DNA of 56,666 nt, the filler included, from Jimgerdemannia flammicorona (taxonomy: Eukaryota): assembly GCA_003990765.1 (NCBI GenBank). It is 3 parts of 3 records of this genome, joined end to end, with 100 filler letters (N's around TTAATTAATTAA, not from the genome) between each part and the next. Parts side by side here need not be neighbours in the genome. Positions count along the whole stretch, not along the records: positions 18,925 to 37,745 come from RBNJ01002102.1; 2 more parts are not named here. One strand, given 5' to 3'. The translations under genes were made by a program, and so were the position numbers. Under the pieces are notes generated by a model that ran no database searches, was not told where the DNA came from, and saw only the letters and a program-made list of their open reading frames with translations. Below, in pieces: positions 13,153-37,745 of the stretch; position 1 is the stretch's first letter; each line of letters opens with the position of its first letter.

Positions 13153-13422
13153 GAGTTAAAGGTAACTTTCAGCCCTAAGTTCTGAGTTCTTGAGAAAGCA
13201 CTGAGTTTCTAATTGTCTATTGCAGTAGAGTCTAGATATCACTTATGGATTCTTATATTGGTAGAAGTACCATACTTATATTCCAAGTTGATTAGACTTA
13301 GAATTATTAACAAGTTGGGTCTGAGAGTTCTGTGATTAGGATATTTTTTTTTTTTTTTTTATAGTCCCTTGGACTCCGTCTTTATTACCAGTCTATGAAT
13401 AAATTTACAATATCCCCACCCA

Positions 13423-16400
13423 CTATCCAATTCCCATTGGGTGGCCCCACCCCACCTCATCACGTATAAAGACCACCCTCTCACCGACAACTCCAACTCT
13501 CCCACCACTCTGACTACAGATTTTCACCACCAAGCGGTGCCTCCGACCCCCCTGCAGCCCCCAACCAAGCCACCAGCCTGTCAAGGTATCCTCCATAAGG
13601 AAATGCCACCTCGCTAACTGGCTCCCCGAACTCAAATATTTCTCCTCCTCAAATACAAATAACCAGTGGCTGACCAGCCCAACCCAAATAGCCAATGCCC
13701 AACCTAGAGTAATCCACTCTTCCCCAACCCCTCCTATCAATCGATCCCTCAGGTCCTCCCACCTCCCCTGTACATCATCACCCCTACGCCTTACCCCCAA
13801 GCGGTCCCCAATGGCCTGCCAAAAGTCTCCCAACACCTCACACTCCCCAAGCCAATGTTCTGGCATCTGTACCAATTCCCCTTCCTGCCCTACATTATGG
13901 CACTCCTCGCAGTCAAAGCAGCCCCCTACCACAAGATGTCCTGAGCAGAAGTTAAGCATCACATTCCTCCTCAGAACACGCCACCAGACAACCCAGTACT
14001 TCGGCGGCATCCAAATTTTCACCACAGTACTCCAGGTCCAAACCCCATGCCAGTCCCACTCCTCACCAATTCCAACACCTTGCCAACCACTAGGCCACAG
14101 ATCCTGGCCTGGACCCCTTTGGCATTCGATGCCATCACTAATGTCAAACTCCAGTAAAGGCATGCCTCCCAGAAGAATGCTATCCCATCTCCACATCACC
14201 AGGTCCCAAGCCCTCTCCCCCTCATCCCCTTGCCAGCGAATACCAATGCGGTGTGCCCCCTCGGCTATCCCCCACCAGAACCCTTTGTATCTCAGTCGCG
14301 CAGTGTTCCGAAGCCCAACCAATGAAAGAAGATCACCAGTTAAGCCTCTAGGCGATGTTCGTCTCTCCCATATCTTCTACAGCAGAGGGACCCAGCCCCC
14401 TCCATGCAACTCCGCCGCCCTCCTCAGCCACCAAGCCCTCAAGCAGTGTAGACATTTGGGGAAGTCCACCAGCCCATGACCACCTCTCGCCACTGGTAGG
14501 GACAAAGTCTCCCAACTAATCTGACTCCTTCTGCCCACCCAGATCCATCCCTTGGCCACCTTCACCAATCGCTTCACTACCCAGACTGGGAAGTCCAGAT
14601 GATAGGCCAAATACCACAGCTTCAGCAGCTAGTATACATTCAAAATCGAGATCCTTCCTGCCAGAGAGAAGTGTCGACCCCCCCAATCCCTCAGGTCCTC
14701 CTCCCAAATTCCAATCCTCTGCTCCCACCACAGCCTGGGCAAAACAGACCCATAGACTGACAAATAGATGCCCAAGTACTGCACTGCCTCACCGGTGGGG
14801 ACAATTGTTCCAATAACTTCTCCACCCACCAAGCCATTGCCCAGCACCATTGTTTCACACTTGTACCAATTCAGCTTCGCTCCAGAGTTCTCCTCATACC
14901 ACTCCACTGTCTTCCGGAGCTCCTCGACATCTGCAGTCACACCCAAACCAACCACTATATCATCCGCAAAGGCTCCAACCTTCCAGCCAATGCCATAGAT
15001 AGAGAGCCCCACAATCTTCTGCCAAATTCTGTCCATCAGAGGTTCCAAGGAAAGAGCATACAAAATGGGGGACAGCGGGTCCCCCTGGGGCACTCCCCTA
15101 CCCAGAGGGAAGGCCACTCCATAATGCCCATTGCACACAAGCGCTGCCCTACTCCTTTCCAGTAGGCTGACCATTGCCGCCCGAAATGGGCCCGGAACTC
15201 CAATTCTATCCAATACTTTCGCCAGCCAGACTCGCCGCACCCGGTCATAAGCCTTCTCCTGATCCAAGAAGACGAGACGCCCATCTAGTCCACAGGCTCG
15301 AGCACCTTCAATAACTCCATGTACCCAGGCCGTGCCATCTCTAATAAGCCGACCCCCTATGAAGCCCCTCTGCTCAATACCCACAATTTGCTGGGCCACC
15401 TTCTGTAGCCTTGCAACCACCACCTTAGTCACTAACTTCCTATCCATATCTAGCAACATTATCGGCCACCAGTTCTTCCAATCCTCTCGCCTTCCCTTGT
15501 TCTTATAAAGCAGCGTCACCAGCCCAAGGTCTTGCTCCCCCACCCATCTCCCTGACTGCAATATAGAGTCACACAGTGCTGTCAACTCTCCCAATATGCC
15601 CGGGACTCCAACCATATGCTTCCAGAAGTCCCAAGGGAGGCCATCCTCCCCAGGCGCCATACCCGAGGCTGTCGCGGCAAGAACCTGGTGGATCTCGTCC
15701 TCCTTTACAGGTATCACCAGTTCACCTAGTCCCTCAGCTTGTGGCAGGTGCCAATCTTCTAATGTTCGGTCAATGGCTGTAGTATCCGCCCCACCCTCCT
15801 CCTCACTCCACAATCCACTCTATTGCACTTTCAGTATTCTAAGGATGTCCTGTACACTATGCAATAGCATATCATCGGAGCCAAGTACCCATTCCCACCG
15901 CTGCTGTGCCCTTCTTGCTCGAAGTGTCCTTGTGAGAAACTTGGATGGCCTCTCCCCTTCCTCCAGCCCCTGCCAACGAAGCCGTGCCACTAGGCCTTGC
16001 ACCCTTGACTCTTCCTCTTCCCGCAGTACCTGTTGCAGTTCCCCCACCTCCATTCTCACCCTCTTTAATCTCCAATCCTCTTCTCCCTCCACTGTCATCA
16101 GTCTTGCCCACTCCTCCAGAAGCCTAGCCAATCTAGTAGAAGCCCAATGCACTTTCTGCCTTCGCTATTTCCCAGCCACTCTGCCAGCCTCACTCCAATA
16201 CATCCTGGCCATCTCTTTCATCCTCATCCACCAAACCTCAATCGCGGCCCCTTCCTGCTGCCAATTTGCCACTTTTAGCTGAATGTCATTTGCCCACTCC
16301 TCCCACTGGGCCTCATCATCCAACAACGAGGAATTTAGGTGCCAATGTCCAGGCCCATCCCTACTTCCCCCAAAACACCCCTGTCCCAAGAGGCCCCAGT

Positions 16401-17079
16401 GATCTGACCATGGACACTATTCGACCTCTAGCACCTTCCAAACATCGCGGCCCCAACAGTTGGCTGTCAGAATCCAGTCAATCCTTGTCCCCAGACCTCC
16501 AGTCCAATGCATATATACTCTCCTATTCCCCCAGTGCTCCCTACCAGCATCCACCATTGCTCCTAGCCATTCAACCTCCTCCCATGTTGCTAACCCCCCA
16601 CTCCTGCTCTCTGCACCCCGTCCTCCATCAGTTCTATCCATCCGTACATCCCGAACCATGTTGAAATCTCCTCCAAGCATATCCAATCCAGCTTCAGCAA
16701 TGATCCCACTCTCCAGGAGCCCTTTCACCCAATCCACATGCTCCCCCCGCACAGCAGGGCAGTAACAGGAGCCAACGGTGACCAGCTCCCAATCTGCATG
16801 AATCCACTCACCCCAGACCAGTCTCTCCCCCCAGCTCCTCACATCCTTTATCTCCCCTCTGCCTTTCCACACCAGAATCCTGACCTTGCTGTTCCAAGTT
16901 GCCATACCACTCTATTCCTTAGTCTATTCTATCCTTTCAGCATCATCCTCACACCTGACATCCTGCAAGAGGAAGAGATTGGCCTCCAATCCCTTCAACC
17001 AAATAAAAATGTTCCTGCGTCGAACTGCGCCCCTCAGCCCATTTACATTCATAGAAAAAATGTTGGTTGTACTGTTCAT
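13423..17079 (-). pseudogene. LINE ORF2: APE endonuclease + reverse transcriptase + C-terminal Cys/His finger; single frame with TAG stops
   Basis: Motifs IFSMNVNGL, LLQD, GGDFN, RIDWIL, SDH, APGEDGL, LDQEKAYDRV, GVPQGDPLSP, FADD, YLG and CFDC...HWLGEC; 3657 nt, no net frameshift. Confidence 0.95.
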
Positions 17080-17109
17080 AGTAAAATACTGTTTGTTCGC
17101 AATCAATCT

Positions 17110-18824
17110 CTACTGCTCCATGCTCCTCTCCTCCTGTGCTGTGTCCAGATCATGTTCAGCCATCGCCTCCTCCTCTGCAGCCCTCTGAGTCTCTAGTCCA
17201 GCCAACAGCTCATTCATCTCCTCATCAGCCTTCTCCTCAAACTCCTCTCAGTACTCAATGCAAGCCTCCTGCCAAAGCTGCAACCCATGACGCCTGTTCC
17301 AACAGTACTCAGCCTTCTCCCCAGCGACCACCACCAACTCTGCCTCTCTCGCCTTATTCACCTCATACCCTTCCTCCTCCAGATATACTGCAAGAATTTC
17401 TGCCTTCAGCACTATTGCCACTCCTTCCCCCTGCAAAATTCCCATCCAGTGCTCATCACTCATTGCGCGCAAGTCCACCTCCCCCAGCTCTTCTGCTGCC
17501 AGGTTATTCATCATCCGGCACATCCAAAGTAGGTTCCCCACCTCCTTTCCACCAGGGGTCACCGGCCTCCCTCCATCCAGCATCGTGGTGTCAGCTCCCG
17601 TACTCGCATCCTCATCCCATACCTCCGGAACATCCACCAGTTCCTCCTCCCCTGCTGCCACTACTCGGTCCCCATCCAATACCTCCGGAACGCTGAATTT
17701 CACCTGCTGGGTCCCCAGCATCGTCACGTCCTCCCCAGACTTGTTTCTGGAAGCCGGGCCACGCCTGATAAGAGGGGAAGGGGTGGGGGAATTCTCCCAG
17801 ACTTCATCCCAAACCTCCAAAGTGCCATCGGCATATAGGTTGCTAACCTTCGCCTCCTCAGCCTTCCCTGACTTTGCCCCCTTGTTCCCACTCCTCTCAC
17901 CAGCCCAGACACTCGCTCCGGCCCCTTCTGTACCCGTCTTCATGCTCACCTCCTTCTGTGGTCCTTCCCCCAGCTTAGCCAGTAGATCCTTCTGCCTCTT
18001 CCGCCCCTGAGCCCTTTCCCACTGCACCTTGTCAACTCGAATCCTCTTTCCATCCACCACCTCCAGGAGTGTTGACTCCTTGAAAGCCTTCCAGGCCTTA
18101 GCTTGCCATTCCACAGCCCCATCCAGCTCCTCCAGTGCTTCCAATAGATCTTCCTCCTCTTCTTCACTATCTTTCACCCACGCCACCTTGCACAGGAAAG
18201 CTCCCCAGACCAATACCGAAGGCCAGTCCCTCGTCTTCCCGGTAGCCTCTTTCCCAGCCAGCCGAATCCTCACATCCACATCTCCAGTCATGAGCGTGGT
18301 CCCTTCCCAGACCCTGAATCCGATATCCACCATCTCTCCATACTCCGCCATGACATCCTCCACTCTCTTCCTCGTCTCCATCACCGTCACCGTGGGCACT
18401 CCCTTCACCAGCAGTTGGACCACCCTCGGATCCCATTTCAGACACCTTGCCATCAGAACATACACCTCCCCAACCACCAACCCAACCTTCAGTGCCTCCT
18501 CCAGTGGTTCAACCTCCTCAAACCCCACCTCCACCCCCTCCAGTCCTTTCAGAAACTTCACCGAAGCTGCTCCCACCATCTGCTTAGCGATAAGTCCCAA
18601 TACCATTTTCGCCGTCACCACTAAGCCCCGGAAGCACAGTGTGACTGTGAACGCCGAGATCGACTTCTTGAGTAACGGGGCCACTGCCAGTCCCATCACA
18701 CCATCCGCCAGGTCCCCAGGCCTTGTGCCCTTCCCACTGCTCGGCTCACTATCAGCAGTCCCATCTAGATTTTTTTCCAGATCCCCCATCACACCCCCAT
18801 CAGCAGTCCCTGCCCCAGCCACTA
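17110..18824 (-). pseudogene. LINE ORF1 (RRM-like region, acidic/coiled C-terminus), premature TGA at 17248
   Basis: Long ORF directly upstream of ORF2 and homologous in all four copies (LKKSISAFTVTL..., VQLLVKGVP...EYGEMVDIGF). Confidence 0.8.
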
Positions 18825-18924
18825 NNNNNNNNNNNNNNNNNNNNNNNNNNNNNNNNNNNNNNNNNNNNTTAATTAATTAANNNNNNNNNNNNNNNNNNNN
18901 NNNNNNNNNNNNNNNNNNNNNNNN
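18825..18924. other. Artificial contig linker N44-TTAATTAATTAA-N44
   Basis: Six-frame stop 12-mer centred in exactly 100 nt; repeated identically at 37746-37845. Confidence 0.95.
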
Positions 18925-19110
18925 CTAGACTCGGCTTTACGGCCTGAAGCTATTCCAAATTAAGAAAGCAGTCACTTTGATTAGCTAAGCCTCTCATCGG
19001 GTATAAATACCCCCTTCCCCATTATTTTTTCGTTGCACAAACAAAGGTCACGTGACCCGCGTTTCACAATTTCAAACAAATAAACAAACACACCTTCGCC
19101 TATTTCGGCA

Positions 19111-20613
19111 ATGTCGGCCACCTCCTCCGTCGTCGGCGATGACAGCAATGCCACCCGTCTCTTCGCGCGCTTCGGCGCCTCTCTCCGCTGCGCTGAATGT
19201 CGCGGTGTCGGTCTTCTTTCCATCGGCTTCAGCGAGGGTAGCCTTACGGTGATGTGCAGGTCCGGTCGTGCGGGGATGCACGACCGATATCAGCATATTT
19301 ATCTTCGCTGCACGATGCGGAAGATGACGAAGAGATCGCAATCTCGTCCGAATCGGACCATGACGCCCAGCGCGTCAATTATTCTCCCACGCTCCGCCCT
19401 TCAATCGGAACAAGCGTGGTCGCCCAAACACTAGTTTGGGAATGACCCCGACGGCCGGTCGTGCGGGCCCCTCAGCCGACCCCGATCTGGTCACGGAGAT
19501 GGCCGCGATGAGGAAGCAAATCTCGGATTTGCTGACTCAAGTGGCCGATCTGGCCAAGATCAACGCTCAGCTGATGGCGCAGCATGCTGCGCATCATGCA
19601 CCCACCACCCCCTCGACATCTGGTGCTCCTTCGGGAAGTACCCCGCCGCCCCTTCCACATCCGCCCCCCCCAAGTCCTCGGCCCCCCCTCCTACTGGTCC
19701 TGCTGCGAACACGCGGTCGAAGGCCCAGAAGCGAGCAGACAAGCTGGCCGCTAAAGCCGCCGCATCGCAGTCTGGTGCGCCACCAAAGGAGGTAACTCCC
19801 ACGGCTGTACCTCCAGCCGCTAAAGCCGCGCCCCCTAAAAAGGGCAAGGCCAAGGCTCCCGGGCCAGTGCCCCAGGCTACGCCTGAGGGACCCAGCGCCG
19901 CCGGTCCATCTTCGTTCCATGCTTCGACCCCCGCCCCCTCCAAATCGTATGCCGCCGCCACCAAGAAGGTCTCTATCAAGGATAGGACCCAGGCCTACCC
20001 CGAGATGGAAAGGGCAGCTGCTGCTGCCGCCCTTTCGCGCATGACCCGCAAGCCGACCTCTCATTTGTCGCCGACTGAGAAGGGCGCTAGGCTGTAGCAT
20101 GTTTACGTTGACAGATTCGCCCATCTGAAGATCGGGCAGATCCGGAAGAACTTATACGACGTCTATGTGATGTTGTCAAAAGTTCTCAACATGTCGTACG
20201 TCTCGGCGTCGACAATCGAATTCCTTCTCCACCCTGATTATGTCACGGTGTTCTAAAAGAAGATGAGGGCGCTCGGGTTCTCGGTCCTTTCGGTCTGGGA
20301 CCCCACGCTTCCCCGCAACAAGAACGCCATGGAGGCCGTAAAAACACGGGTCCTCCAGTCATTCCATGCTTGGGTCCGGCAATTGGCAGGCGAAGCCACT
20401 GTAAAGAGGCCCGAGGTGCAGACCTTCTACAGGGCGTGGGCCGCGGAACTCGGCCTCACCCTCCCCTCCACTGCCTCCCCATCCGCTGGCCCTGCTTCGA
20501 AGGCAGGTGGTATTGTTGCTGTGATGTGTGAGATGGCGATGGATTTGGAAGCTGAAGCTTCCGCCTCAGGTGCTTCCCACGCTGTTGGCGCTAGCGCGCC
20601 CGGCCCCCAATGA
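19111..20613 (+). pseudogene. T1 ORF1: CxxC...CxxC zinc ribbon, coiled coil, Pro/Ala linker, RRM-like C-domain (frameshifts and stops)
   Basis: CAEC...CRSC, MRKQISDLLTQVADLAKINAQL, SYAAA and RVYVDG...IEFLL...WDP, reconstructed by comparison with T2. Confidence 0.75.
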
Positions 20614-23600
20614 GAGTCGGGTTCCTCAATGCATATGGACTACCTCAGGACAAGTTCGATGTGCTCAGTCGGTTGATTGGTCCTGCCCTCGACGTTCTTT
20701 TCGTATGTGAAATGTGGCACATCCCGCTGCGTCCCTCTCCGCTCATTCACATGTCCTCCCCTCCGGCGTCGCACAGGATCGTGGGTCACCAGAACGGTGG
20801 TCTCGTGGTCCTTGTGTCAAACCGTTTCGCCCCCCTCATTTCCAGGTCCTCCACCGACCCCTTCCATATCCGGCTCATGTTCCAGGGCCTGGCTTTGGTT
20901 GGGGTTTATGCCCCCCCTCTCTTCCCATTGGTGGCTTCCGTGATCTTGTGTCTGGTCCCTTCCCAGGTAAGGCTCTCCTGATCGGTGACATCAATACCTA
21001 TTTCGGTGCTCGCCTTGGTGACGTCAACTCTGGTCCTCGCGATCGGATGGATGTCGTCGATACCTCCATGATGACGTGGTCGTTGAACCACCTGACCCCG
21101 GTGGCTGGATCCACACGCGTTGATCACGCATTCGCCACTGCGTCCCTCCACACGTCCCTCACCTGCTCCACCCCTCCTGTCGCCACCGACCACCCCTCCC
21201 TCCTCACTGTCACCTTTCCCTTCTCCCCCTCGCCAGTCGCTGCCTTAGCTGGTGTCCGACGCTACTCTGCGAAATACCTGACTGACCTGGTCGTTCAAGC
21301 CCACCTTCGGGAATCGGCGGATATCGTTTGTGATACCGTCATCAGGTCCATTTACTCTGTTAGGGACTACATCGCTGGCTTTCGCTCTGTGGAAGATCGC
21401 CAGCAGTTTGTGGATTCCCTTGACACTCTTTTGACCTCTGGTCTGCAGTCTGTCTGTGAGGACATTCTTGGCTCGTATAACGCAAGAGAAATCAGAGCGG
21501 TGCCGCTCCCTAGGCATGACCTCCTTTGCAGTGCATCGTTGGTCTCCGATGCCATCCGTGGTTTCAAGTGAGCGTATCGCTCCACCCCCTCCGCACTCCT
21601 CCAATCTCGCTCTCCCAATGTCCCTGTATTCGACGATGTGGTTGCTTACTTTACCACTATCTTCGGCCAGCCAGACACCTCCCTCCGCCTCGATGACTCT
21701 GAGGATGTCTTTCCCCTCGGCGTGGGTGCTCTTGGGCTGCAGTCTTGGTTTGACCAACCTGCGGTTTAGAGAGCTATCCGTAGCTACCCCCTCTCTAAGG
21801 CATGTGGTGCCGACTCCTTGCACGTCCGGATCCTTCGGGTGATGGCGGGCGAGAAGGACGCCCCCTGTAGCCTTTCGAAAGCTCTTTCATTCTTCTTCCA
21901 GATGTGCATGGTCTGGGGGCTCACTCCCCGCCGCTGGAACTCAGCCATCATCACCCTGGTCCCCAAGAAGGAGGAATCGCGTACGATTGATGGATTTCGC
22001 CCCATTGCTCTGACTGAAATATTTCGCAGACTCTTCGAGCGGTGTTTGGAAGGATACGTCAAAAGCCGAGGCGGCCTGACAGAAATGTCGCGCTGCCAAG
22101 GCGGCTTCCGAACCCGCTTCTTGTCCCTTTCTCATGTCCTGTTAGCACGAGACGTGGGCTAAGGGATGGGGCCGCCGTGTCTTTTTGGACCTCCGGCAGG
22201 CATATGATCGAGTCCCCCTCAAGTGCATTCTTTCCCGCCTTGAGGCGCGAGGTGCCGATGCGGCCCTCCTTAGCATTATCCGAAGCCTGTTCAATCACTG
22301 TTCTTATCAGGTGGTTGTCAACGGCCTCGTCACCCCTTCAGTCCCCACTGAGCGTGGCCTCTTCCAGGGCTCCCTCCTCTCCCCCTGGCTCTTTGATGTC
22401 TTCATCGATCCCCTCGCCGCCTCCTTTGATGAACAGTTCAAGGAGTACGACTTCCCCCTCGGGCTTTTCTTTGCGGATGATATCGCCCTTACCCCCCGCA
22501 CTACCGCGGAAGGGCAAAGGATGGTTGATTTTTGTGAAGATTGGCTTCGGGTGAATGGTATGGAGCTCAATCCCAAGAAGTGTGGTTATGTTGGCCCTGC
22601 CGACTGTACCGTGCGGATTGGGGGCGAACCCTGCCTGCGACCCACCTCCTATGTATACCTGGGCGTGCCGTACACCAACAAAGGGTTTGACTTTGTCGAC
22701 CTGGTGTTGCAGAATGCGGTGAAGGCGGAACGAACTCTTGGGTTCTGCCGCGCCTGTGGTCCTCTCTGGTCGCCAATGGTCAAGCTGGCCATCGTACGAA
22801 CTTTCATCAGGCCTCAGCTGGAGTATGGCCTCCCCCTTCTACGTGCTTCCTGTCCGGCTACTACCACGGGGCTTCAGGTGTTGAAGCATCCCGAACAGGT
22901 CTTTGATGAAGCTGTCGCTTGGGCGGTTGGATTTTCCGGCTGTCCCTTGCTTGGCAGTTCGATTCTCGGCCTCCCTTCCTTCCTTCGTCATATGTCTGAC
23001 CTCTGCTGCATGTTCCAAGCTCACCTGGATTGGTGTAGCAAGTCGGGTAATAACCCCATTGGCCCCCTTAGCGAGCGCTTTGTCACGCGTCCCCCGGGTT
23101 CTATTATTGACAAGTTCCGGCGTTGGACCTCTTGGCTTGACTTCCTCGACTGGTACTGGGACCTCCGTCCCCAGGTCCGCAAGACTCGCTCGCTCCGCTC
23201 CTTCCTCCAGTCCTTCCTCTGGGATCAGCTGCTGCAGGAATGGGCTTCCTCCTCCCAGGCTCTCATTCGGTATATCACCCCCAAAGGCCGCTTATGGTCA
23301 CGGGGAGCCGATCGCATCCTCTCCTTCCCCCCCCGGCTTGTGCGTTCCGCCCTCGCCTGGCACTATGGCTACTTTGGCCAACCCCGCCCCTGCCCCTGTG
23401 GAGATAAGTTTCATCGTGGCCATCTCCTCAGGTGCGGTCTTCTCGACGGTTCGTATTCTGCTTTCCGAGGTTCTTCAGATGGAGATGAACAGCTCGACTG
23501 GTTTACCAGTGACGAATAGCAGGAGGAACTTCGTATCTACCCTCTTCATGCTCTTCACGAGACAGCCTACCACGCTATCGACGCCATGTGTAATTCTGGT

Positions 23601-23654
23601 GGCCATCTCGCGGTCGGGTTCTGTCTGACCAAGATTACAAAGATGCTTGGGTGA
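20610..23654 (+). pseudogene. T1 ORF2: APE endonuclease, reverse transcriptase, CPC...H...C knuckle
   Basis: Motifs GFLNAYGL, CEMW, GVYAPP, IGDIN, RVDHAF, TDH, FRPIAL, QGGFR, DLRQAYDRV, QGSLLSP, FADD, YLG and CPCGDKFHRGHLLRC. Overlaps the ORF1 stop as ATGA. Confidence 0.95.
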
Positions 23655-24060
23655 TCGAGCGATCGCACATTTTCTTTACTTCTTTCTTTCCCCTCGTTTG
23701 CCCCGGTTGGTCCCCCCGTTGTGGAGAGCGCATTGAGTTATTCATCTCATTTCAGTCATTTGGTGTTTAGTTGTCGATACAGTTCATGTAGTAGGCGCCG
23801 GGCGAATGTGTATTATATCTTAGCCTTTCCTTTCTTTGCTTTTTGCATTTATTATCTCTACGGCCGTAACTAAATGGTTTATCCAGCCTGTCCATAGGGT
23901 GGTCGCCTCTCTGGCCTTTGTTTTGTACTTCTTAGCTAGTTGTTTACTTCGCTGGCCTTGTTTTGCTTTTCTCATCTTAGGAGTCTTGTCTTTTGTTGCT
24001 CCGATGTATCTCATCTTCTCTACAATGAATAAATTCTTACTTGAAGCCTAACCCTAACCC

Positions 24061-27000
24061 ATTCACGTGAATTTTCCCATTTGGCTAGACTCGGCCTTAT
24101 GGCCCGAAGCTATTCCAAAATAAGAAAGCAGTCACTTTGATTAGCTAAGCTTCTCATCAGGTATAAATACCCCCTTTCCCATTATTTTTTTGTTGCACAA
24201 ACAAAGGTCACATGACGTGCGTTTCACAATTTCACAAACACAAACAAACACACCTTTGCCTATTCTGGCAATGTCGGCTACCTCCTCTATCATCGGTGAT
24301 GATGGCAATGCCACCCACCTCTTCGCGCACTTCGGCGCCACTCTCCACTACGCTGAATGTCGCAGCATCGGTCTTCTTTCCCTCGGCTTCGGCGAGGGTA
24401 GCCTTACGGCGATGTGCAGGTCATGCGGGGATGCACGAGTGATATCGTCGTATTTATCTTCCCTGTGCAACATGGAAGATGACGAAGAAATCGCGATTTC
24501 TTCCAATTCGGACCACGATGCCCAGTGCCCCCCCTACTCTCTCATGCTCCCGCCCCTCAATCGGAATAAGCGTGGTTGCCCAAACACTAGTTTGGGAATG
24601 ACCCTGACTGCCGGTCATGCGGGCCCCTCAGCCGACCCTGATCTGGTCACGAAGATGGTCATGATGAGGAAGCAGATCTCAGATCTGCTGACTCAAGTGG
24701 CCGATTTGGCCAAGATCAATGCCCAGCTGATAGCACAGCTTGCTGCACATCATGCGCCCACCACCCCCCGTCATCTGGTGCTCCTTTGGGAAGTACCCCC
24801 GCCGCCCTTTCCACATCCGCCCCCCCCAAGTTCTTGGCCCCCCTCCTACTGGTCCTGCCGCGAACACGCGGACAAAGGTCCAGAAGTGAGCGGACAAGCG
24901 GGCCGCTAAAGCCACTGTATCGCAGTCTGGTGCACCGCCGAAGGAGGCAACTCCCATGGCTGTACCTCTGGCCACTAAAGCCGCGCTCCCTAAAAAGGGC
25001 AAGGCCAAGGCTCCTGGGCCAGTGCCCCAGGTTACACCTGTGGGACCCAGCGCCACCGGTCCATCTTTGTCCTCCGCTTCGACCCCCATCCCCCCTAAAT
25101 CGTATGCCGCCGCTGCCAAAAAGGTCTCTATCAAAGATAGGATGCAGGCCTACCCCGAAACAGAAAGGGCCGCTGCCGCTACCGCCCTTTTACACATGAC
25201 CCACAAGCCGACCTCTCATTTGTCGCCAACTGAGAAGGGCGCTAGGCTGCAGCGTGTTTACGTTGATGGATTTGCCCATCTAAAGATCAGACAGATCCGG
25301 AAGAACCTGTACGACATCCATGTGATGTTGTCAAAGGTTCTCAATATGTCATACATCTCGGCGTCGACCATCGAATTCCTGCTCTGCCCTGATTATGTCA
25401 CAGCATTCCAAAAGAAGATGAAGGCACTTGGGTTCTCAGTGCTGTCAACCTGGGACCCCACTCTCTCATGCAACAAGAACGCCACGGAGGCCGTGAAGAC
25501 ACAGGTACTCCAATCATTCCATGCTCGGGTCCGGCAGTTGGCAGGCGAAGCCACTGCGAAGAGGCCTGAGGTGCAGACCTTCTACAGAGTGTGGGCCGCG
25601 GAACTCGGCCTCACTCTCCCCTCCCCCGCCTCCCCGTTGGCAGGCCCTGCTTCGAAGGCAGGTGGTACTGTGGCCATGATGGGTGACATGGCGATGGATT
25701 TGGAGGCTGAAGCCTCCGCCTCAGGTGCTTCTCACGCTGTTGGTGCTACCACACCCGGCCCGCAATGAGAGTCGGGTTCCTCAATGCATATGGACTACCC
25801 CAGGACAAGTTTGATGTACTCAGTTGGTTGATTGGTCCTGCCTTCGACATTCTTTTTATATGTGAAATATGGCACATTCCGCTGCATCCCTCTCCGATCA
25901 TTCACATGTCCTCTCCCCCGGCGTCGCACAGAATCGTGGGACACCAGAATGGTGGTCTCGTGGTCCTCATGTCAAACCGTTTTGCCCCCCTCATTTCTGG
26001 GTCCTCCGCCGACCCCTTCCATATCTGGCTCATGTTCCAGAGCTTGGCTTTGGTTGGGGTATATGCCCCGCCCTCTCTTCCCATTGGTGGCTTCCGTGAT
26101 CTGGTGTCTGGACCCTTTCCGGGTAAGGCCCTTTTGATTGGTGACATCAATACCCATTTCGGTGCCCGCCTTAGTGACATCAACTCTGGTCCCCGTGATC
26201 GGATGGATGTCGTCGACACCTCTCTGATGACATGGTCGTTGAACCATCTGACCCCGGTGGCTGGATCCACACGCATTGACCACGCGTTCGCCACCGCATC
26301 CCTCCATATGTCCCTCACCTATTCCACCCCTCCTGTCGCTACCGATCACCCCTCCCTCCTTACCATCTCCTTCCCCTTCTCTCCCTCGCCGGTTGCTGCC
26401 TTGGCTGGCATCCGTCGTTACTCTGCGAGATACCTGACCGATCCGGTCATTCAAGCTCACCTCCGGGAATCAGCAGATATCGTTTGCGATACTGTTATCA
26501 GGTCCATCTACTCTGTCAGAGATCACATCGCTGGCTTTCACTCTGTGGAAGATTGCCAGCAGTTTGTGGATTCTCTTGACGCCCTTTTGACCTCTGGTCT
26601 ACAGTCAGTCTGTGAGGACATTCTTGGCTCATATGACGTAAGAGAGATCAGGACAGTGCCGCTCCCTAGGCAGGACCTCCTCCGCAGTGCATCTTCGGTC
26701 TCTGATGCCTTCTGTGGTTTCAAGCGAGCATATCGCTCCACCCCCTCCGTGCCCCTTCAATCCCGCTCCCCCAATGTCCCAGTGTTCGATGATGTGGTTG
26801 CTCACTTTACTACTATCTTCGGCCAGCCGGACACCTCCCTCCATCTTGATGACTCTGAAGACGTCTTCCTCCTTGGCATCGGAGCTCTTGGGCTGTAGTC
26901 TTGGTTTGACCAACCTGCGGTTTGGAGAGCTATCTGTAGCTACCCCCTCTCAAAGGCATGTGGTGCTGACTCCTTGCATGTCCGGATCCTTCGGGTGATG

Positions 27001-29220
27001 GCAGGCGAGGGGGACGCCCCTTGTAGCCTTTCAAAGGCCCTCTCGTTCTTCTTCCAGATGTGCGTGGTCTGTGGGCTCACTCCCCGCTGCTGGAACTCAG
27101 CCATCATCACCCCGGTCCCCAAGAAGGAGGAATCGCGAATGATCAATGGATTTCACCCTATTGCTCTGACTGAAATGTTTTGTAGACTCTTCGAGCGGTG
27201 TTTGGAAGGATACATCAAGAGCCGAAGTGGCCTGACAGAAATGTCACGCTGCCAAGGTGGCTTCCGAACCTGCTTCTCATCCCTTTCTCATGTCTTGCTC
27301 TCGCACGAGACATGGGCCAAGGGATGGGGCCGTCGTGTCTTTCTGGACCTCCGGCAGGCATATGATCGAGTCCCCCTCAAGTGCATTCTTTCTCGCCTTG
27401 AGGCACAAGGTGCCAATGTGGCCCTCCTTAGCATTATTCGAAGCCTGTTCAATCACTGTTCTTACCAGGTGGTTGTTAATGGCCTCGTCACCCCTTCAGT
27501 CCCCACTGAGCATAGCCTCTTCCAGGGCTCCCTCCTCTCCCCTTGGCTGTTTGATATCTTTATCGATCCTCCCGCCGCCTCCTTTGATGAGCAGTTCAAG
27601 GAGTACAACTTCCCCCTAGGGCTTTTCTTTGCTGATGACATCGCCCTTACCCCCTGCACCGCCACGGAAGGGCAAAGGATGGTTGATTTCTGTGAAGATT
27701 GGCTCCAGGTGAACGGTATGGAGCTCAACCCCAAGAAGTGTGGTTATGTTGGCCCGGCTGACTGTACTGTGCTGATTGGGGGCGAACCCTGCCCGTGACC
27801 CACCTCCTACGTGTACCTGGGCATGCCGTACACCAACAAAGGGTTTGATTTTGTTGACCTGGCATTGCAGAATGCGGCAAAGGCGGAACATACTCTTGGT
27901 TTCTGCCATGCCCGTGGTCCCCTCTGGTCGCCAATGGTCAAGTTGGCCATCTTATGTACTTTTATCAGGCCTCAGCTAGAGTATGGCCTCCCCCTTCTAC
28001 GAGCTTCCTGCCCGGCTACTACCACAGGGCTTCAGGTGTTGAAGCATCCCGAGCAGGTCATTGATGACGCTGTCGCCTGGGCGGTTGGATTTTCTGGCCA
28101 TCTCTTGCTTGGCAACTTGATTCTTGGCCTCCCTTCCTTCCTTCGTCATACATCTGATCTCTGCTGCATGTTCCAAGCCTACCTGGATTGGTGCAGTAAG
28201 TCGGGCAACAACCCTATCAGCCCCCTTAGCGAGCGCTTTGTCATGCATCCCCTGGGTTCTATAATTGACAAGTTCCAGCGTTGGACCTCTTGGCTTGACT
28301 TCCTTGACTGGTACTGGGACCTTCGTCCCCAGGTCCGCAAAACTCGCTCGCTCCGCTCCTTCCTCCAGTCCTTCCTTCGGGACCAGCTGCTGCAGGAATG
28401 GGCCTCCTCTTCCCAGGCTCTCGTTCGGTATATCACTCCCAAAGGCCGCTTGCGGTCGAGGGGTGCCGATCGTGTCCTCTCCTTCCCCCCCTGGCTTGTG
28501 CGTTCTGTGCTCACCTGGCGCTATGGCTATTTTGGCCAACCCCGCCCCTGCTCCTGTGAAGATAAGTTTCATCATGGCCATTTCCTCAGGTGCGGTCTTC
28601 TCGATGGCTCTTATTCTGCTTTCCGAGGTTCTTCGGATCGAGCTGAACAGCTCAACTAGTTTACCAATAACGAATGGCAGGAGGAGCTTTGCGCCTACCC
28701 TCTTCACGCTCTTCACGAGACAGCCTACCACACTATCGATGCCATGTATAATTCTGGTGGCCACCTTGCAGTCGGGTTCTGCCTGACCGAGATTACAAAG
28801 ATGCTTGGGTGATCGAGCGATCGCACATTTTCTTTACTTCTTTCTTTTCCCTCATTCGTCTGGTTGGTTCCCTTGTTGTTGAGAGCGCATTGAGTTATTC
28901 ATCTCATTTCAGTCGTTTGGTGTTTAGTTGTCGATATGGTTCATGTAGTTGGTGCTGGGCGAATGTGTATTATTTCTTAGCCTTTCTTTTCCTTGCTTTT
29001 GCATTTATTATCCTTACGGCCATAACAAAATGGTTTTATCCAGCCCGTCCATAGGGTGGTCACCTCTCTGGCCTTTGTTTTGTACTTCCTAGCTAGTTGT
29101 TTACTTCACTGGCCTTGTTCTGCTTTTCTCATCTTAGGAGTCTTTGTCTTTTGTTGCTCCGATGTATCTTATCTTCTCTACAATGAATAAATTCTTACTT
29201 GAAGCCTAACCCTAACCCTA
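24061..29220 (+). mobile_element. Telomere-tailed LINE, copy T2 (apparently full length, head-to-tail with T1, period 5160 bp)
   Basis: Colinear with T1. ORF1 24271-25768; ORF2 25765-28812 is a single frame with stops at 26896 (TAG), 27796 (TGA) and 28657 (TAG); tail CCTAACCCTAACCCTA at 29205-29220. Confidence 0.95.
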
Positions 29221-31920
29221 CCTGTTCATTCACCTAATATGTTTAAACCCTTACATTACCCTACCATGCTCTGCCCATATCTCCTAATGAGTTCATGTTC
29301 TCCAAATCCTCCTATATATCCAGACCACTACTCCTCCTACCTGCATTTCTCTCTCCATCAGTTCTATCCACCTGTGGGTTCCTTACTATATTAAAATCTC
29401 AACATAGAATATCTACTCCGTCCTCCAAGAGAACACTCTCTTCTAGCAGAGTCCTAATTTATATGATCCTCTCACCCCTAACTATATGGCAGTAGCAGAA
29501 GCAAACTCTTACTAATTTCTACATAGGTTGATGCCATTCTCTCCAGACTAACTGGTCACCCTAGCTTCTGATACCTCCTAAATCTTCTCTCTTTTTTCTC
29601 ACTAGAATTATCACTTTGCCATTCTAAGCAGTAACACCACCATTACCCTATTCTCTAGCCCACTCCATCTGATCCTCCTCACCCTTACATCATATATCCT
29701 GCAGTAAAAAGAGATCAGCCTCCAAACTCTTAAGCTAAGAAAAAATGTTCTTACACCACCCAGATCTCTATAACTTATTCATATTTAGAGAGAAAATATT
29801 AGTTGTACTATTCATAAGGAATAATATTGTTTAGTAATTATGCCTTCTACAAATCTGCATTCAACTCCTCCTATACCAAGTCCAAGTTATGTTCTACTAC
29901 CAGCATCTTCGCTTCATCTACCTATGCCTCCAATCTAGTCAAAAATTCAGTCATCACTCTAGCCTCTTTTTCCTCAAAGTCCTCATGGTATTCCAGACAT
30001 ACCTCCTGCCAGAGTTGTAACCCATAACACTCTGCCCAACAGTAAGCAGCTCGCTCACCAGCAACAACTGCTAACCCTGCCTCTCTTACCTTATTAATCT
30101 CATATCTCCCCTCCTCCATGTAAATTGCAAGTATCTCCACCTTCAGTACCTCTACCACCCCATAGCCCTACAAGATCTATGCTCAATACTCCTCAGACAT
30201 TACACATAAGTCTACCTTCTCTAACTCCTCAGTGATAAGGTTATCCATCATCTTGCTTATCTAGAGCAAGTTCCACACCTCTTTCCCTCCTGGTGTCTCT
30301 GTCCTTCTCACAACCAGTATCATAGTATCAACTACTATACTGGTCATCTTATCCTACCTCTCCTCTTGGATATCCACCAACTCATCCTTGCTAACTACTA
30401 CTACTTGTCTGTCTTTTGCTATATCAGGAACCCAAAAGTGAACCCACTGAGTACCTTTCATCAGCACATTCTCTGTCTCCTGACCCCTTGTAGCTGGACC
30501 CCTCTTAATTAAAGGGGGAGTATTATTCAAGATTGGTTTCTAGACTTCAAATGTGCCATCTGCAAAGGGGTCTGTATGTAGTATCTTCTCAGCTCCTTTC
30601 TGATCCTCTGCCACATCTCCTCCTCTCTTACTAGCCCAGACACTCACCTCTATTCCCTCAGACTTTTCTGTACTCCCAGTCTTCATCTTCATTCTACCAT
30701 TCAAGCTTGCTAGCAACTCTCTCTTCCTTCTATATCCTTGAGCCTACTCTCACTGTCTCCTGTTAATATAGATATATTTCCCATCCACAACCTCTAGATA
30801 TATTGACTCTTTATATAGCTTTTAGGCTTTTGCTCTCCTCTCCATAGCACAACTCAACTTCTCCAGAGCCTCCAACAAGTCCTTCTCCTCCTCTTCACTC
30901 TCTTTCATCCTTAATATCTTACAGACAAAAGCCCCCCACATTAGCACTGAGGGCCCATCACCTGTCTTCCCTGTGGTCTCTTTCTCTGCCAGTCAAATCC
31001 TGACATCGATGTCACCTATCCTAAATGTAGTCCCCTCCCACATCTGAAAGCCAATGTCTACAATGTCACCATAATCAACCATCACCTCTGCCACCCTCCT
31101 TCTAGTCTCCTTCTTTGTTACCATAAGCACTCTTCTTACTAGAAACCATACTATCCTGGGGTTCCACCTCAAGCACTACACTATGGGGACCACTACTTTC
31201 CCAACTACTGCTCTAGTCTTCAGGGTCTTGTCCAGTAGACCTGCCTCTTCAAAGCCTACCTCAACCCCCTTCAGACCCTTCAGGAACTTCACTGAGAGTA
31301 CTCCAGTCATCTGCTTTAAAATAAGCCCCAGAACCATCCTTGCCATCACTGCTAAGCCCTGGAAATACAAAGTAGCTGTAAACTCCGAGATTGACTTCTT
31401 GAGCAATGAGGCCCCACCAGCGCCATTACAATATCTATCAGATCCCCCTTCTACATTGGGAACCCCTGCTCCATCTGGCCATCAGCCATCACATCTCTTT
31501 TTTTTTCCTAATTTCCCATCAACAGTCACACCCCCAGCCACAGCCCCTTCAGCCCCTATACTCACATCTTCCACCTGAGGGCTACCCCCCCTCCTGATGC
31601 TAGCCTTACTCTTCTCCTCAGTAGCACCTGCCCTGGTTCTAGCAGGCCATCTACTCACCTTCACCTTGTCAGCAAAACTAGAGAGACCAGGCCTTTTCCT
31701 AGATCCACCCAATATCAGTTCTCCTCCAGAGTCTTTGCCACCCTTCGACTCTTCAAAAGCCCCTATCTCCAATCTATAATCTCTCTCCACATACTATCAA
31801 CTGAAAGCCCCAGGTCTACCCAACCCAGCATACCCATCAGAACTCTTGCTCAATAATATTTTTATAAACCTTTTCTTCAAGTTGTGTTGAAAACAATTGC
31901 TTGAAGTTTATATAATATGA
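29221..31920 (-). mobile_element. L1/Tx1-like LINE, copy D: 5' UTR, ORF1 and start of APE only, cut at the T2 telomeric tail
   Basis: LKKSISEFTATL...VKFLKGL and GLQLWQEVCLEY match ORF1 of copies A and B; homology stops within the endonuclease at 29221. Confidence 0.85.
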
Positions 31921-31942
31921 ATTATATAGGAGAAAGGTTTTA

Positions 31943-33961
31943 GTTTCATAGACTCTTCAAGTAGTGTTTAGAAGGTTATATCAATAGCCAAAGTAGCCTA
32001 ACAGAAATGTCATACTGCCAAGGTGGCTTACAAATCTGCTTCTTATCCCTTTTCTATATCTTGCTCTCACATGAGACATGGGCCAAGAGATGGGACTACT
32101 GTATCTTTCTTGATCTCCAGCAGGCATATAATAAAGTCTCCCTCAAGCTCATTCTTTCTCGACTTGAGGTGCAAGATACTAATGCAGCCCTACTTAGCAT
32201 TATTAGCAATCTCTTCAATTATTGTTTCTATCAAGTGGTTGTCAATAGCCTCATTACCTCTTCAGTCCCCACTGAGCATAGGCTTTTCCAAAACTCTCTC
32301 CTCTCCTCCTGGCTCTTTAATATCTTTATTGACCCCTTCACCATCTCTTTTGATGAACAGTTTAAGGAGTATAACTCTCTCCTTAAGCTCTTCTTTGCTG
32401 ATAATATTGTCCTTACCCCCTATACTGCCATGAAAGCACAAAAGATGATTGACTTCTGTAAGGATTGACTCTTGGTAAATAGTATGGAACTCAATCCCAA
32501 AAAGTGTGGTTATGTTGACCTAGCTGACTATACTGTATAGATTGAGGGTGAGCTATACCTGCAACCCCCCTCCTATATATACTTAGGTGTGCCATATACT
32601 AATAAAGGATTTGACTTTGTCAGTCTAGTTTTACAGAATATAGTAAAGGTGGAATGTTCTACCATGCCCATGGTCCTTTATGGTTGCTAATAATCAAGCT
32701 GGCCATCATATGCACTTTCATTAGGCCTCAGCTAAAATATAGTCTTTTCTTTCTATGAGCTTCCTGTCTGGCTACTACTATGGAGCTTCAGATATTAAAG
32801 CATCTTGAGCAGGTCTTTGATGATACTATTACTTGGGTGGTCAGATTTTCTGGCCTTTCCTTACTTAGCAGTTTGATTCTTGACCTTTTCTTCTTCCTTT
32901 AACATATGTTGGACCTCTACTATATATTCCAATCCTATCTGGATTGATGTAGCAATTCTGACAACAACCCCATCAGCCACCTTAGTGAGCAGTTTATCAT
33001 ACATCTCCTGGATTCTATTATTGATAAGTTCTAGCATTAGATCTCTTGGCTTGACTTCCTCGCTAGTACTGAGACCTTCGTCCCTAGGTCTGCAAGACTT
33101 GCTCACTCCACTCTTTCTTTCAGTCATTCCTCTAGGATTAGCTACTCCAGAAATGGGCCTCCTCCTCTCAGGCACTCATTCAGTACATCACTCCCAAAGG
33201 CTACTTGCAGTCTTGTGATACTGATTACATCCTCTCCTTCCTACACTAGCTTGTATATTCTGTGCTTATCTGGCACTATGGCTACTTTGGCCAGCCCCAC
33301 CTCTGCCTCTATTAAAATAAGTTTCATCATGGCCACCTCCTCAGGTGTGGTCTTCTCAACAATTCCTATTCTACCTTCTGAGATAATTCTGATTATAATG
33401 AACAGCTCAATTGATTTACCAATGATGAATGATAGGAAGAACTTCATACCTACCCTCTTTATGCTCTTTACGTGACAGTCTACAATACTATTGATATAAT
33501 GTGTAATTGGTAGCTATCTCATAGTTGGGTTCTGTCTGACTGAGATTATGAAGATGCTTAGGTAATCAAGCAATTGAATATTTTCTTTATTTCCTTCTTT
33601 CCCCTCATTCACCTTAGTTGGTTTCCTTATTGTTGAGAGCATATTGAGTTATATATCTCATATTAGTCATTTGGTATTTAGGTAACAATATTATTCCTAT
33701 AGTTGATGCTGGGCATTTGTGTATTCTATCTTAGCTTCTCTCTTCTTTGCTTTCGCATTTATTATCTTTATAGCTATAATAAAATAATTTATCTAACCCA
33801 TCCATAGAGTGCTCACCTCTCTGGCCTTTGTTTATTCTTCTTAGCTAGTTGTTTACTTTGCTGGCCTCTTTTGGCTTTTCTCATCTTAGGAGTCTTTACC
33901 ATTTGGTACTCTGATATATCTTATCTTCTCTACAATGAATAAATTCTTACTTGAAGCCTAA
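31943..33961 (+). mobile_element. Telomere-tailed LINE, copy T3 (RT to 3' end, heavily mutated)
   Basis: SHETWAKRW...LDLQQAYNKV...FQNSLLSSW...FADNI; ends AATAAATTCTTACTTGAAGCCTAA. Confidence 0.9.
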
Positions 33962-34934
33962 TAATAACTCTATCAACTCTCTTAGTAAATATTTTATAAT
34001 ATACTCCTCTGATTCTATTTTTGATAGATTCTCTTATTAGATTTCTTATCTTGACTTTCTTAATTAGTACTAGGATTTCTGTCTTTAGATATATAAGATA
34101 TATATATATACTTTACCTCTTTCTCTAGATATTTCTTTAAGACTAACTATTATGGAAATAAATCTCTTTTTCAGTACTTACTTATATAATATATAATAAC
34201 TTATAACTACTTATAGTCATGAGAGATTAATCATATTCTCATCTTTTCTCTTTAACTTATATATTCTATACTTATCTAATACTATAACTACTTTGGCTAT
34301 CTCTATTTCTATCTTTATATAGATCAGTTCTACTATAGCTATCTTTATAAGTATAGTCTCTTGATGATTTATCTGAGATATTTTTAGTTATAAATAACTT
34401 AACTAATTCATCTATATTAAATAGTAGAAAAAACTTTGATCTTTTCTCTTTATACTTTTTATAGATATATATAATTCTGACTGCTATCTTATATTATCTC
34501 TTCAAAATTATAATAATACTTATATGATCAAATAATTAAATATTTTTTTTTATTTTCTTTTTTCTTATATATTTTAATTAATTCTCTTATTATTTAGAGT
34601 ATTTTGAATTATTTATTTTATATAAATCATTAGTATTCAGTTGATAATATATTATTTATAGTTAGTATCAGATATATTTATATTTGATATAGTTTTATTT
34701 ATTTTTAATTATATATTTTTTATTTTCTTTATAACTTGATAAAATAGTTTATTTAATTAATTCCTAAAATAGAATATCTTATTAGTCTTTGTTTAGTTTC
34801 TTCTTTATTAGTTTTTTACTTTACTGACCTCTTTTTACTTTTTATTCTGATAAGTAGTAGTTGTTTTTGATAGTCATATCTGCTATAAGATATTAATATC
34901 TACAGTTATATCATCTTTTCTAAAATAAATAAAC

Positions 34935-36095
34935 TATTATCTCTGCTATCTTACTGGTTACAAAATTGGGTAGGTGATCTTTTGAGTTCTCTTTTTATAA
35001 CTTATACTCTCTCTATCTCAGGTTAGTTTGCTATACCTATTGTAGAGCTATAAGAGTGAGACAATAGTGATAAGTTACTCCTTTATTGATATTATATCAG
35101 TATCTTCTCAACTTTTTTATAGTTTCTAATATCTTCAGCTATATCTGGAATATATCTGTTTTAGTACAGCACTCTTTTTTTTTTACTGTCATTAATAATA
35201 TATCATCTGATATATTTATTACATATAGAGTTGGTCAATCTTAGATATTAAGTACTAGTATAGATTATCTACAGGTCTTCAGTATCTATAATAGGGCTCT
35301 CTGAGCTTTGGTGAGCTTTCTAGTATATATAGTTCTAGTATAAATAACTGCTTTTTGAGTAGAGTTAGATTGGAAGAGGAGATGGTCATCATAGATAAGA
35401 GAAAGATCAATTATAGTAAATCAGTAGAGTATTAGACTGAGAGCAGTCATTAAGGCTAGAGTGGGTACTGTATTGATGGAGCTTTCTGATTGATGCAAGG
35501 TAATTAGATAATAGATATTTTACTTAACTACTTTTAGTGATTTGTAAGATTAGGTCCTGATATTAAAGATAATTGAGAGACCCAAGACTACTTAAATTAG
35601 AAATCTTAGCTATACTTAACAGGAATTGGAAGCTAATATAATAATATGATTAAGGCTTATAAACTTGAGTAGTGGGGTATTAGAAGTCTCTTCTTATCTT
35701 ATATATAAGTTCTCTACTTATCTTATTGAGGCAAGTCAGGTTTTATCTACTATTCTATACTTTGAGAAGGGTTTTTTTTTATCTGTTACTCTCCTTAGAG
35801 TGATAGGGGCTATGTTAATTTTCTTGGTTATAGTCTTATATATATATTGAGATTCTAGGTATATATCTAAAGTTTGCATTTATTACTCTCTTATAGTAGA
35901 TAGAGTATGGTATACAGAATGATTTATGGGCAATTTTGCTCTACTATACTTGATATAGTTGAGCTACTGGACAATAGTTAGCCTAGGTTTAATGAGAGTA
36001 TAGTGCTCAGTAGGTAGTGAGAGAGAATTTTGACCTATATAGTCTAGATTTCCTTTTAATAAAATCTCTGAGACTTTAGATCAGGTAAAAAAAAT
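34935..36095 (+). mobile_element. Non-autonomous ~1.15-kb retroposon, copy S3
   Basis: Starts tctctgctatcttactggttacaaaattgggtagg (same 5' end as S4) and ends AATAAAATCT...AAAAAAAA. Confidence 0.85.
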
Positions 36096-36114
36096 AAAAT
36101 AAAATAAAATATAC

Positions 36115-36284
36115 TATTACTTAAAGCATAACTCTAACTATTACTATAATAAATAAATTATTGTATATAGGGTTGTAGCTACTAGAGTAGTTTATAGGCT
36201 ATATGTTTATTATTAATTAAAAAAAAAAAATAAAAAAAAAAATTAAATAAATTATTACTTAAAGCCTAACTCTAATTCTAACTC
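36115..36284 (+). repeat. Two relic 3' ends of the telomere-tailed LINE family
   Basis: TATTACTTAAAGCATAACTCTAAC (36115-36138) and AATAAATTATTACTTAAAGCCTAACTCTAATTCTAACTC (36246-36284), versus T1 AATAAATTCTTACTTGAAGCCTAACCCTAACCC. Confidence 0.7.
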
Positions 36285-36398
36285 TTAAATATATTATTTT
36301 CTATAAAAGAATATATCTCTGATCTAGATTTTTTCTAAATAGTTTAAGTAAATAATAATCGTGGTGACATTTATATGTATTGATTTTTCCTTCGAATA

Positions 36399-37655: not shown

Positions 37656-37745
37656 ATGGGGGGGTTGGTTGGTTGGTTGGTTGGTTGGGATCTATCGAAC
37701 AATGATAAAAAAATAAATTTTTTTTTTTTCCTTATTTAAAAAAAA

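Follow-up and report, generated by a model that had tools for sequence, protein, structure and literature searches.

A 56,666-nt stretch of DNA from the early-diverging fungus Jimgerdemannia flammicorona (Endogonales, Mucoromycotina), hereafter the window, carries a head-to-tail array of a long interspersed nuclear element (LINE) of the apurinic/apyrimidinic endonuclease (APE) type whose copies end in telomere repeats. The element belongs to a reverse transcriptase (RT) clade whose members end in about two to four C-strand repeats (CCCTAA) in place of poly(A). Telomeres of the TTAGGG type are described for Mucor, of the same subphylum Mucoromycotina, in the available text of 10.1101/706580.

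Tandem copies with telomere-repeat ends

The window consists of three contigs joined artificially, and the element array occupies the left end of the middle one (18925-37745). Three copies, T1, T2 and T3, are present:

18925-24060, + strand: T1, near full-length, its 5' end cut by the contig boundary (repeat search, blastn)
24028-24060, + strand: 3' terminus of T1, with AATAAA, a 13-nt spacer and the tail CCTAACCCTAACCC at 24047-24060 (motif search)
24061-29220, + strand: T2, a full unit of ~5.16 kb with leader, open reading frames ORF1 and ORF2, a 3' untranslated region (UTR) of ~545 nt and tail (blastn)
29186-29220, + strand: 3' terminus of T2, with AATAAA, a 13-nt spacer and the tail CCTAACCCTAACCC(TA) from 29205 (motif search)
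31943-33961, + strand: T3, an older, 5'-truncated copy that starts inside the RT (blastn)

T1 and T2 are direct tandem elements of ~5.16 kb, as an earlier note on this DNA had described them: T1 (18925-24060) and T2 (24085-29218) are 88.7% identical over 5143 columns (blastn), and a repeat search found 11 co-linear direct-repeat blocks between them at a spacing of 5155-5160 nt. Two details of that description have to be revised. Position 18925, given as the start of T1, is the end of the contig and not the 5' end of the element, and the window holds more than two copies, since T3 corresponds to positions 3117-5149 of T2 at an identity of ~77.5% (blastn).

Exactly two matches to the 14-nt tail CCTAACCCTAACCC exist in the window (+ strand, at 24047 and at 29205), whereas 0.04 would be expected by chance, and none of 100 shuffled windows contained at least two matches. 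AATAAA followed by the spacer TTCTTACTTGAAG and CCTAA occurs at 24028 (T1), 29186 (T2) and 33938 (T3), with the spacer identical in all three copies; the tail of T3 is CCTAA only, after which AT-rich repeat DNA adjoins. The proposed terminus AATAAA-spacer-CCTAACCCTAACCC(TA) thus stands for both T1 and T2 except for the trailing TA, which follows the tail of T2 only. There is no A-run after the tail of T1, T2 or T3. T2 accordingly follows T1 without poly(A), as had been claimed; its start directly after the T1 tail is less certain, because the 24 nt between that tail and the first T1-alignable base (24061-24084) cannot be aligned to T1, which has no counterpart there since the contig starts at that point. 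As T1 gives no comparison for this stretch, 24061-24084 is only a candidate 5' end of T2. The T2 leader is 210 nt long, with a CACGTG palindrome and a TATAAATA box.

Between T1 and T2 there are 566 substitutions at aligned positions, of which 485 are transitions and 81 are transversions, and 12 small indel runs. CpG context accounts for 240 of the 485 transitions, which suggests decay by deamination of methylated cytosines and not repeat-induced point mutation of the CpA type. In T1, the ORF1 ATG lies at 19111 and ORF2 survives as pieces (20607-23447), with 1-nt and 2-nt deletions near 20914 and 22141. T2 carries a single frameshift in ORF1 near 24900 and two private stops in ORF2, TAG at 26896 and TGA at 27796, where T1 reads CAG and CGA. 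No disabling ORF2 mutation is common to the two copies; thus, T1 and T2 diverged with ORF2 still open. As judged from their sequences, T1, T2 and T3 are all dead copies.

Encoded proteins

The coding features of the element are as follows:

24271-25768, + strand: T2 ORF1, with ATG at 24271 and the single frameshift
25762-28659, + strand: T2 ORF2, single frame with the two internal stops
25762-26481, + strand: T2 APE endonuclease domain (profile and model)
~27115-27750, + strand: T2 RT (Pfam RVT_1, 1.7e-20)
23391-23435, + strand: CCHC-like motif C-x-C-x7-H-x3-C of T1 (motif)
28549-28593, + strand: CCHC-like motif C-x-C-x7-H-x3-C of T2 (motif)

On profile and model evidence, the T1/T2 element is a two-ORF APE-type LINE, L1-like in layout, with an ORF2 collinear with human L1 ORF2p. 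The earlier assignment to this type is borne out by the RVT_1 match, by a profile match over APE and RT, by the fold of the APE model and by the retention of catalytic residues. An HMMER search of a protein library with the RT piece returned 24,454 proteins at E <=1e-3, among which the best full-length relatives have ~1000 residues, are 46-47% identical and have an RT that starts near residue 390-400. The Pfam family Exo_endo_phos gives a weak full-length match to T2 (E 0.019). Eight relatives were scanned for it, seven of ~1000-1360 residues plus P0006 (1996 residues, with several RT repeats): six match at E <=0.01, P0007 and P0006 being without a match at that level, and two exceed the Pfam cut-off of 24.5 bits (P0008, 32.2; P0010, 24.8).

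A profile built from 26 ORF2 relatives, A1, matches T2 at 25762-26859 (hidden Markov model search, 3e-80). Positions 3-698 of A1 align in one stretch with residues 6-776 of human L1 ORF2p (5e-53), across both APE and RT; A1 also matches crystal structures of the L1 endonuclease (EN) at ~1e-9, and R2 proteins over the RT only. RT matches in the PDB are to R2 and L1 ORF2p. An AlphaFold model of residues 1-240 of T2 ORF2 (pLDDT, the predicted local distance difference test score, 82.3) retrieves APE1, L1 EN and R1 EN at E ~1e-10 with a TM score of ~0.6. R1 EN is listed there among many APE folds, but neither a TRAS1 nor an R1 EN chain was matched by sequence profile when A1 was compared with PDB chains at E 1e-3. 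The APE catalytic residues N/E/D/N/D/H are invariant in the 26 relatives and retained in T2. All 22 invariant or nearly invariant A1 residues that were checked are likewise retained in T2: 13 in the APE, with the catalytic set among them, seven in the RT, including the ADD motif, and two C-terminal cysteines. ORF2 is open in the relatives L002, L003 and L008.

A C-terminal Cys/His motif is the pattern expected of APE-type LINEs. Since only ~27 residues are left between the CCHC-like motif and the ORF2 stop, there is no room for a restriction-like endonuclease (REL) domain, and the element is not of the REL type.

ORF1 of T2 has Cys-rich N-terminal stretches, a heptad-like helical stretch (a putative coiled coil as judged by eye) and a conserved C-terminal domain (25241-25627) that it has in common with its relatives. 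The ORF1 sequence has no match in Pfam or the PDB. The C-terminal domain is modelled as RRM-like: in its predicted structure (pLDDT 89.7), two helices are added to a beta-alpha-beta-beta-alpha core, and the closest known structures are RNA recognition motifs (RRMs), at middling Z scores of 5-6.4 and Foldseek E values of at least 0.019.

A telomere-repeat tail marks one RT clade

A metagenome scan with A1 identified 79 loci that encode ORF2 relatives (L-numbers); the same scan of viral contigs found no relative, and the ESM Atlas returned generic APE+RT clusters only. A telomere repeat of at least 12 nt is present in 9 of the 79 loci, always as the C-strand on the ORF2 sense strand; the G-strand is found there in none. 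In eight of the nine loci, the repeat lies downstream of ORF2 after a 3' UTR, with an AATAAA-like signal 14-20 nt upstream in several. Tails with readable flanks are 12-23 nt long and are followed by unrelated DNA. None of the 79 loci contains a long (CCCTAA)n array, the longest repeat being 23 nt.

The tail follows relatedness. An automated scan of loci with the ORF2 end inside the locus detected it in 8 of the 10 nearest (L001 has a degenerate tail and L004 none) and in none of the 14 next-nearest, of which L012 ends in A35 and L021 in A11. In an RT tree of 64 sequences, from which none was dropped and which comprises unnamed relatives and no named reference LINEs, all tailed elements (T2, L001, L002, L003, L005, L006, L008 and L009) fall into one clade with an SH-like support of 1.0. 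Also in this clade are L004, which has no tail, L007 and L011, for which the locus does not reach the 3' end, and eight proteins. A poly(A) group is sister to the clade (support 0.956). ORF2 identity across the tailed clade is 26-47%. The tail is therefore a mark of the clade and no local accident. Its length varies even among 90%-identical copies, from 21 nt in L009 to 13, 11 and 10 nt in L010, which indicates that the tail is made or reset at each integration.

The untranslated regions of some relatives contain other tandem repeats, namely a 22-nt unit at positions 1-70 of L003 and C-rich units of ~13 nt in the 3' UTR of L004 (4390-4800). An ATG-initiated ORF of 171 codons in the 3' UTR of L008 (10414-10929), which runs across the tail into the flank, is probably spurious.

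Head-to-tail stacks

Stacking on tails is not confined to the window, where the T1 tail is followed by T2. L001 is a contig about one unit long whose ends overlap in ORF2; behind its degenerate tail lie a complete leader, which has CACGTG and TATA boxes like that of T2, and then ORF1 and ORF2. In L016, four or more copies share one orientation, and those truncated at different places in ORF2 begin immediately behind the tails at 5071 and 7865. Of the three tails in L010, two run straight into short 3' fragments, and a 137-nt copy in this locus shares 96% identity with the 139 nt before it. With the window included, 6 of 17 readable tails are directly followed by the same lineage. These represent five distinct junctions, because the junction between copies 2 and 3 of L010 and that between copies c and d of L016 are one and the same. 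The tail across the clade, together with the recurrent stacks, shows that the tail is a lineage trait and indicates that tails attract new copies.

A search with the ORF1 profile downstream of solitary tails found no further copies. L024, in which a 23-nt repeat lies 25 nt before a 5'-truncated copy, was considered as a stack and was not counted, as the 678 nt preceding the repeat match no other 3' UTR. In L016, a unit of ~345 nt follows two different tails (2399-2743 and 8087-8469) with the same end point and 69% identity. This unit may represent part of a leader, a non-autonomous partner element or a flank that was duplicated.

Flanks and insertion sites

Beyond the T2 tail follow, in order, an opposite-strand copy of a second LINE family, family B, from 29233, then T3, an AT-rich repeat and the gene for eIF3 subunit M (eIF3m), ~7 kb from the tail. 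The family B copies of the window are:

29233-31880, - strand: decayed copy forming the proximal flank of the T1-T2 array, aligning to the B copy at 42032-44685 (alignment)
13344-18782, - strand: family B copy (repeat/RT match)
42405-47844, + strand: family B copy (repeat/RT match)
52200-56666, + strand: family B copy (repeat/RT match)

Family B elements are ~5.4 kb long and 71-75% identical to each other, encode RVT_1 and have a G-rich sense strand (GC skew up to +0.48). They end in AATAAA plus A17, and their RT falls outside the tailed clade.

Among the tailed relatives, L008 lies ~28-33 kb inside a 90-kb contig and L006 ~18-23 kb inside an 82-kb contig. Three stacks, those of L010, L016 and the window, are oriented with their 5' side towards the contig end and their tails pointing inward, the polarity expected of terminal arrays. 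In L006 (6571-6595 and 10054-10083), the first 18 nt of the flank behind the tail agree at 17 positions with an internal ORF2 site of the same element, which is directly preceded by GTTAGGG. The 15-18 nt of identity were rejected as a target duplication, as the ORF2 match runs through that site.

How the arrays may arise

The tail, its constant strand, its conservation across the clade, its variable length, the stacks and the intact set of APE motifs are directly observed; the presence of the repeats in the RNA, the pairing step, an endonuclease preference and any role at chromosome ends are inferred. We consider the chances slightly better than even that new copies arise by target-primed reverse transcription in which a template ending in CCCUAA pairs with a TTAGGG 3'-OH, mostly at APE nicks in older tails or repeat tracts. 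The RNA template would carry CCCUAA repeats at or near its 3' end, and these would pair with a DNA 3'-OH ending in TTAGGG. In most cases, the APE encoded by the element would create such an end with a nick in a CCCTAA/TTAGGG tract that was already there. This tract would mostly be the tail of an older copy, or possibly a telomere proper. From the nick, the RT would copy the RNA by target-primed reverse transcription, and the outcome would be head-to-tail stacks of one orientation in which the next copy, full or 5'-truncated, lies directly after a short tail.

Several points weigh against nick-primed insertion into older tails. Three paralogous family B copies, which represent 'empty' sites, have no telomere motif at the position of the array junction; thus, either the first insertion there needed no pre-existing repeat or the array arose otherwise. 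Solitary copies gave no convincing target-site duplication (k-mer searches of L008, L003 and L005 gave 8-9-mers at chance level), and there is no telomere hexamer near the estimated 5' end of L008. The repeats could be derived from the target instead of being templated, and the identity of the tail with the host telomere unit is an assumption for the metagenome relatives. Finally, some of the stacking may have been copied at the DNA level or by read-through, as the junction common to L010 and L016 and the 96% duplicate in L010 would suggest.

Priming on the G-overhang is one of the two mechanisms that the data allow. In the manner of Athena/Coprina or HeT-A, copies would be added serially to chromosome ends without an endonuclease, CCCUAA pairing with the overhang; eroded 5' ends would be re-capped by a few telomerase repeats, and the arrays would be present or former chromosome ends. 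The polarity of the three stacks agrees with this, as does the junction of the array with a truncated LINE that lacks a telomere motif at paralogous sites, which is what the healing of a broken end would leave. Stacks of 5'-truncated copies with 10-23 nt of repeat between them also resemble telomeric fungal elements, as far as these are described in PMC4522978 and PMC12857005. However, the clade as a whole has kept the APE with its catalytic residues, which is unexpected if the endonuclease is not needed and favours nick-primed insertion into existing repeats. Moreover, none of the 79 loci runs into a (CCCTAA)n array beyond the 23-nt maximum, L008 and L006 lie well inside their contigs, and a housekeeping gene, eIF3m, is only ~7 kb from the T2 tail. 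Endonuclease-free end addition is therefore considered unlikely.

We regard as improbable to the same degree that the element is an ordinary dispersed LINE with a short microsatellite-like tail that serves RT recognition or slippage, as in other LINEs with repeat tails, and only by chance equals the telomere unit, its tandems being due to unequal crossing-over, duplication or read-through. LINEs with short-repeat tails are common. The tails are short and give way to varied unique DNA, no target duplication or target motif can be defined, and the common junction and the 96%-identical 139-nt duplicate point to copying of DNA. Yet the tail is the exact telomere unit, always on the strand able to pair with TTAGGG-3' (nine loci against none), and it is kept across a clade as deep as 26-47% ORF2 identity. 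Copies truncated at several points start exactly at tails, which crossing-over does not yield, and T1 and T2 have no common disabling ORF2 mutation.

An assembly duplication, in which T1 and T2 would be one element written twice, was a concern raised in the earlier note and would fit a contig that starts inside T1 and a fragmented assembly, but it is excluded by the 566 substitutions, the 12 indel runs and the private stops and frameshifts, and tandems recur independently in unrelated contigs, so that its probability is negligible.

Other features of the window

The artificial joints of the window and the remaining gene fragments are:

18825-18924, no strand: artificial joint N44-TTAATTAATTAA-N44 (sequence inspection)
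37746-37845, no strand: artificial joint N44-TTAATTAATTAA-N44 (sequence inspection)
36384-37652, + strand: eIF3m gene fragment, PCI domain and C-helix (ORF piece 36891-37652)
9864-10373, - strand: host gene fragment, NAD_binding_1 oxidoreductase ORF (domain match)
10932-12197, + strand: host gene fragment, weak leucine-rich repeat (LRR) ORF (domain match)

Because of the linkers, features are not readable across 18825-18924 and 37746-37845. The eIF3m ORF piece 36891-37652 is 98% identical to an NCBI protein of J. flammicorona. A family of AT-rich repeats (GC ~25-30%) is represented in all three contigs (1433-4976, 34940-36109 and 50342-51513), in both orientations and at 68-77% identity. A tandem repeat with the 14-nt unit TGGAGGATTCAGAT occupies 40819-41040 (16 copies, 79% matches).

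Comparison with known elements

A full-text literature search found no APE LINE with a telomere-repeat tail, in keeping with the earlier note, which did not recognize the combination as described, although subscription journals, Repbase reports and supplements may hold one.

TRAS1 and SART1 of Bombyx (R1 clade) likewise are LINEs with two ORFs and an APE, and they are associated with telomere repeats in one constant orientation. They differ from the T1/T2 element in that their 3' end is poly(A) and the sequence specificity of their endonuclease directs them into (TTAGG)n, whereas here the tail is the repeat itself. TRAS/SART insertions lie inside repeat arrays, with repeats on both sides. Among the elements described here, the stacked copies have 5' sides that abut earlier tails, the solitary L008 shows no repeat near its estimated 5' end, and no locus has a long array. 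New copies of Zepp of Chlorella, which is L1-like, and of Waldo, Mino, Kibi and Koshi land in older tails or tail-identical repeats and so give nested head-to-tail arrays. The tails of these elements are poly(A) or di-, tri- or tetranucleotide repeats and not the telomere unit.

For the Athena/Coprina elements, a priming model was reportedly put forward by Gladyshev and Arkhipova in 2007. They have no endonuclease, a single ORF and a Penelope/telomerase-like RT, unlike the T1/T2 element with its conserved APE, its ORF1 and an RT that matches L1 ORF2p and R2. A 3.4-kb subtelomeric family of Zymoseptoria tritici, with one to three telomere units at its 3' end, is treated as Penelope-like in the available text of PMC4522978. 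As described there, Athena/Coprina and the Zymoseptoria family resemble the present element in having one to three reverse-complement telomere units at a 3' end that points away from the telomere, and in tandems of truncated and full copies such as those of L016, L010, L001 and the window (PMC4522978).

MoTeR of Magnaporthe, FoTeR of Fusarium and Cnl1 of Cryptococcus are, in the available account, alike in being fungal non-LTR (non-long terminal repeat) elements without poly(A) that have a few TAACCC/CCCTAA units after the 3' end and form head-to-tail arrays that include truncated copies (PMC12857005). FoTeRs are described as REL-type members of the CRE/MoTeR clade with three to seven TAACCC units after the 3' end (PMC12857005). 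All three differ by this description in having a REL downstream of the RT and in clustering with CRE/SLACS, whereas the T1/T2 element has an N-terminal APE and two ORFs (PMC12857005). Their location at chromosome ends is documented, whereas for the T1/T2 element such a location is hypothetical.

Grem-LINE1 of Mucorales, from the same subphylum, is likewise a two-ORF APE LINE of the L1 clade, but it has a poly(A) signal, is pericentric and is reported as not found in any Endogonalean genome (10.1101/706580). Hebe is described as an APE element with poly(A) in the available text of PMC2861651.

Significance of the tailed clade

Retroelements with telomere-repeat tails are the best natural models of how RTs came to serve chromosome ends. 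The fungal cases in the literature found are endonuclease-less Penelope-like elements or elements with a restriction-like endonuclease. The same tail in a clade of APE LINEs would mean that evolution arrived at this 3'-end solution a further time, on the commonest LINE chassis. With its poly(A) sister group and its relatives with intact ORF2, the clade could be used to separate the pairing of the RNA tail with the target from the action of the endonuclease in LINE targeting.

We tentatively raise the possibility, to which we give somewhat less than an even chance, that these elements represent a widespread undescribed clade of L1-like, EN-bearing LINEs in early-diverging fungi and their relatives, in which poly(A) was swapped for an RNA-templated telomere C-strand repeat that homes to TTAGGG 3' ends at nicks in older tails and at chromosome ends. 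If this is true, telomere-repeat-primed retrotransposition would have originated independently in fungi for a third time, the Penelope-like and CRE-like elements being the two earlier cases, and for the first time in an APE LINE. Short-read assemblies of Endogonales genomes may break at this family, which may also leave behind interstitial telomere-like sequences, and, if such homing occurs, the elements could be a back-up end-capping system in Endogonales.

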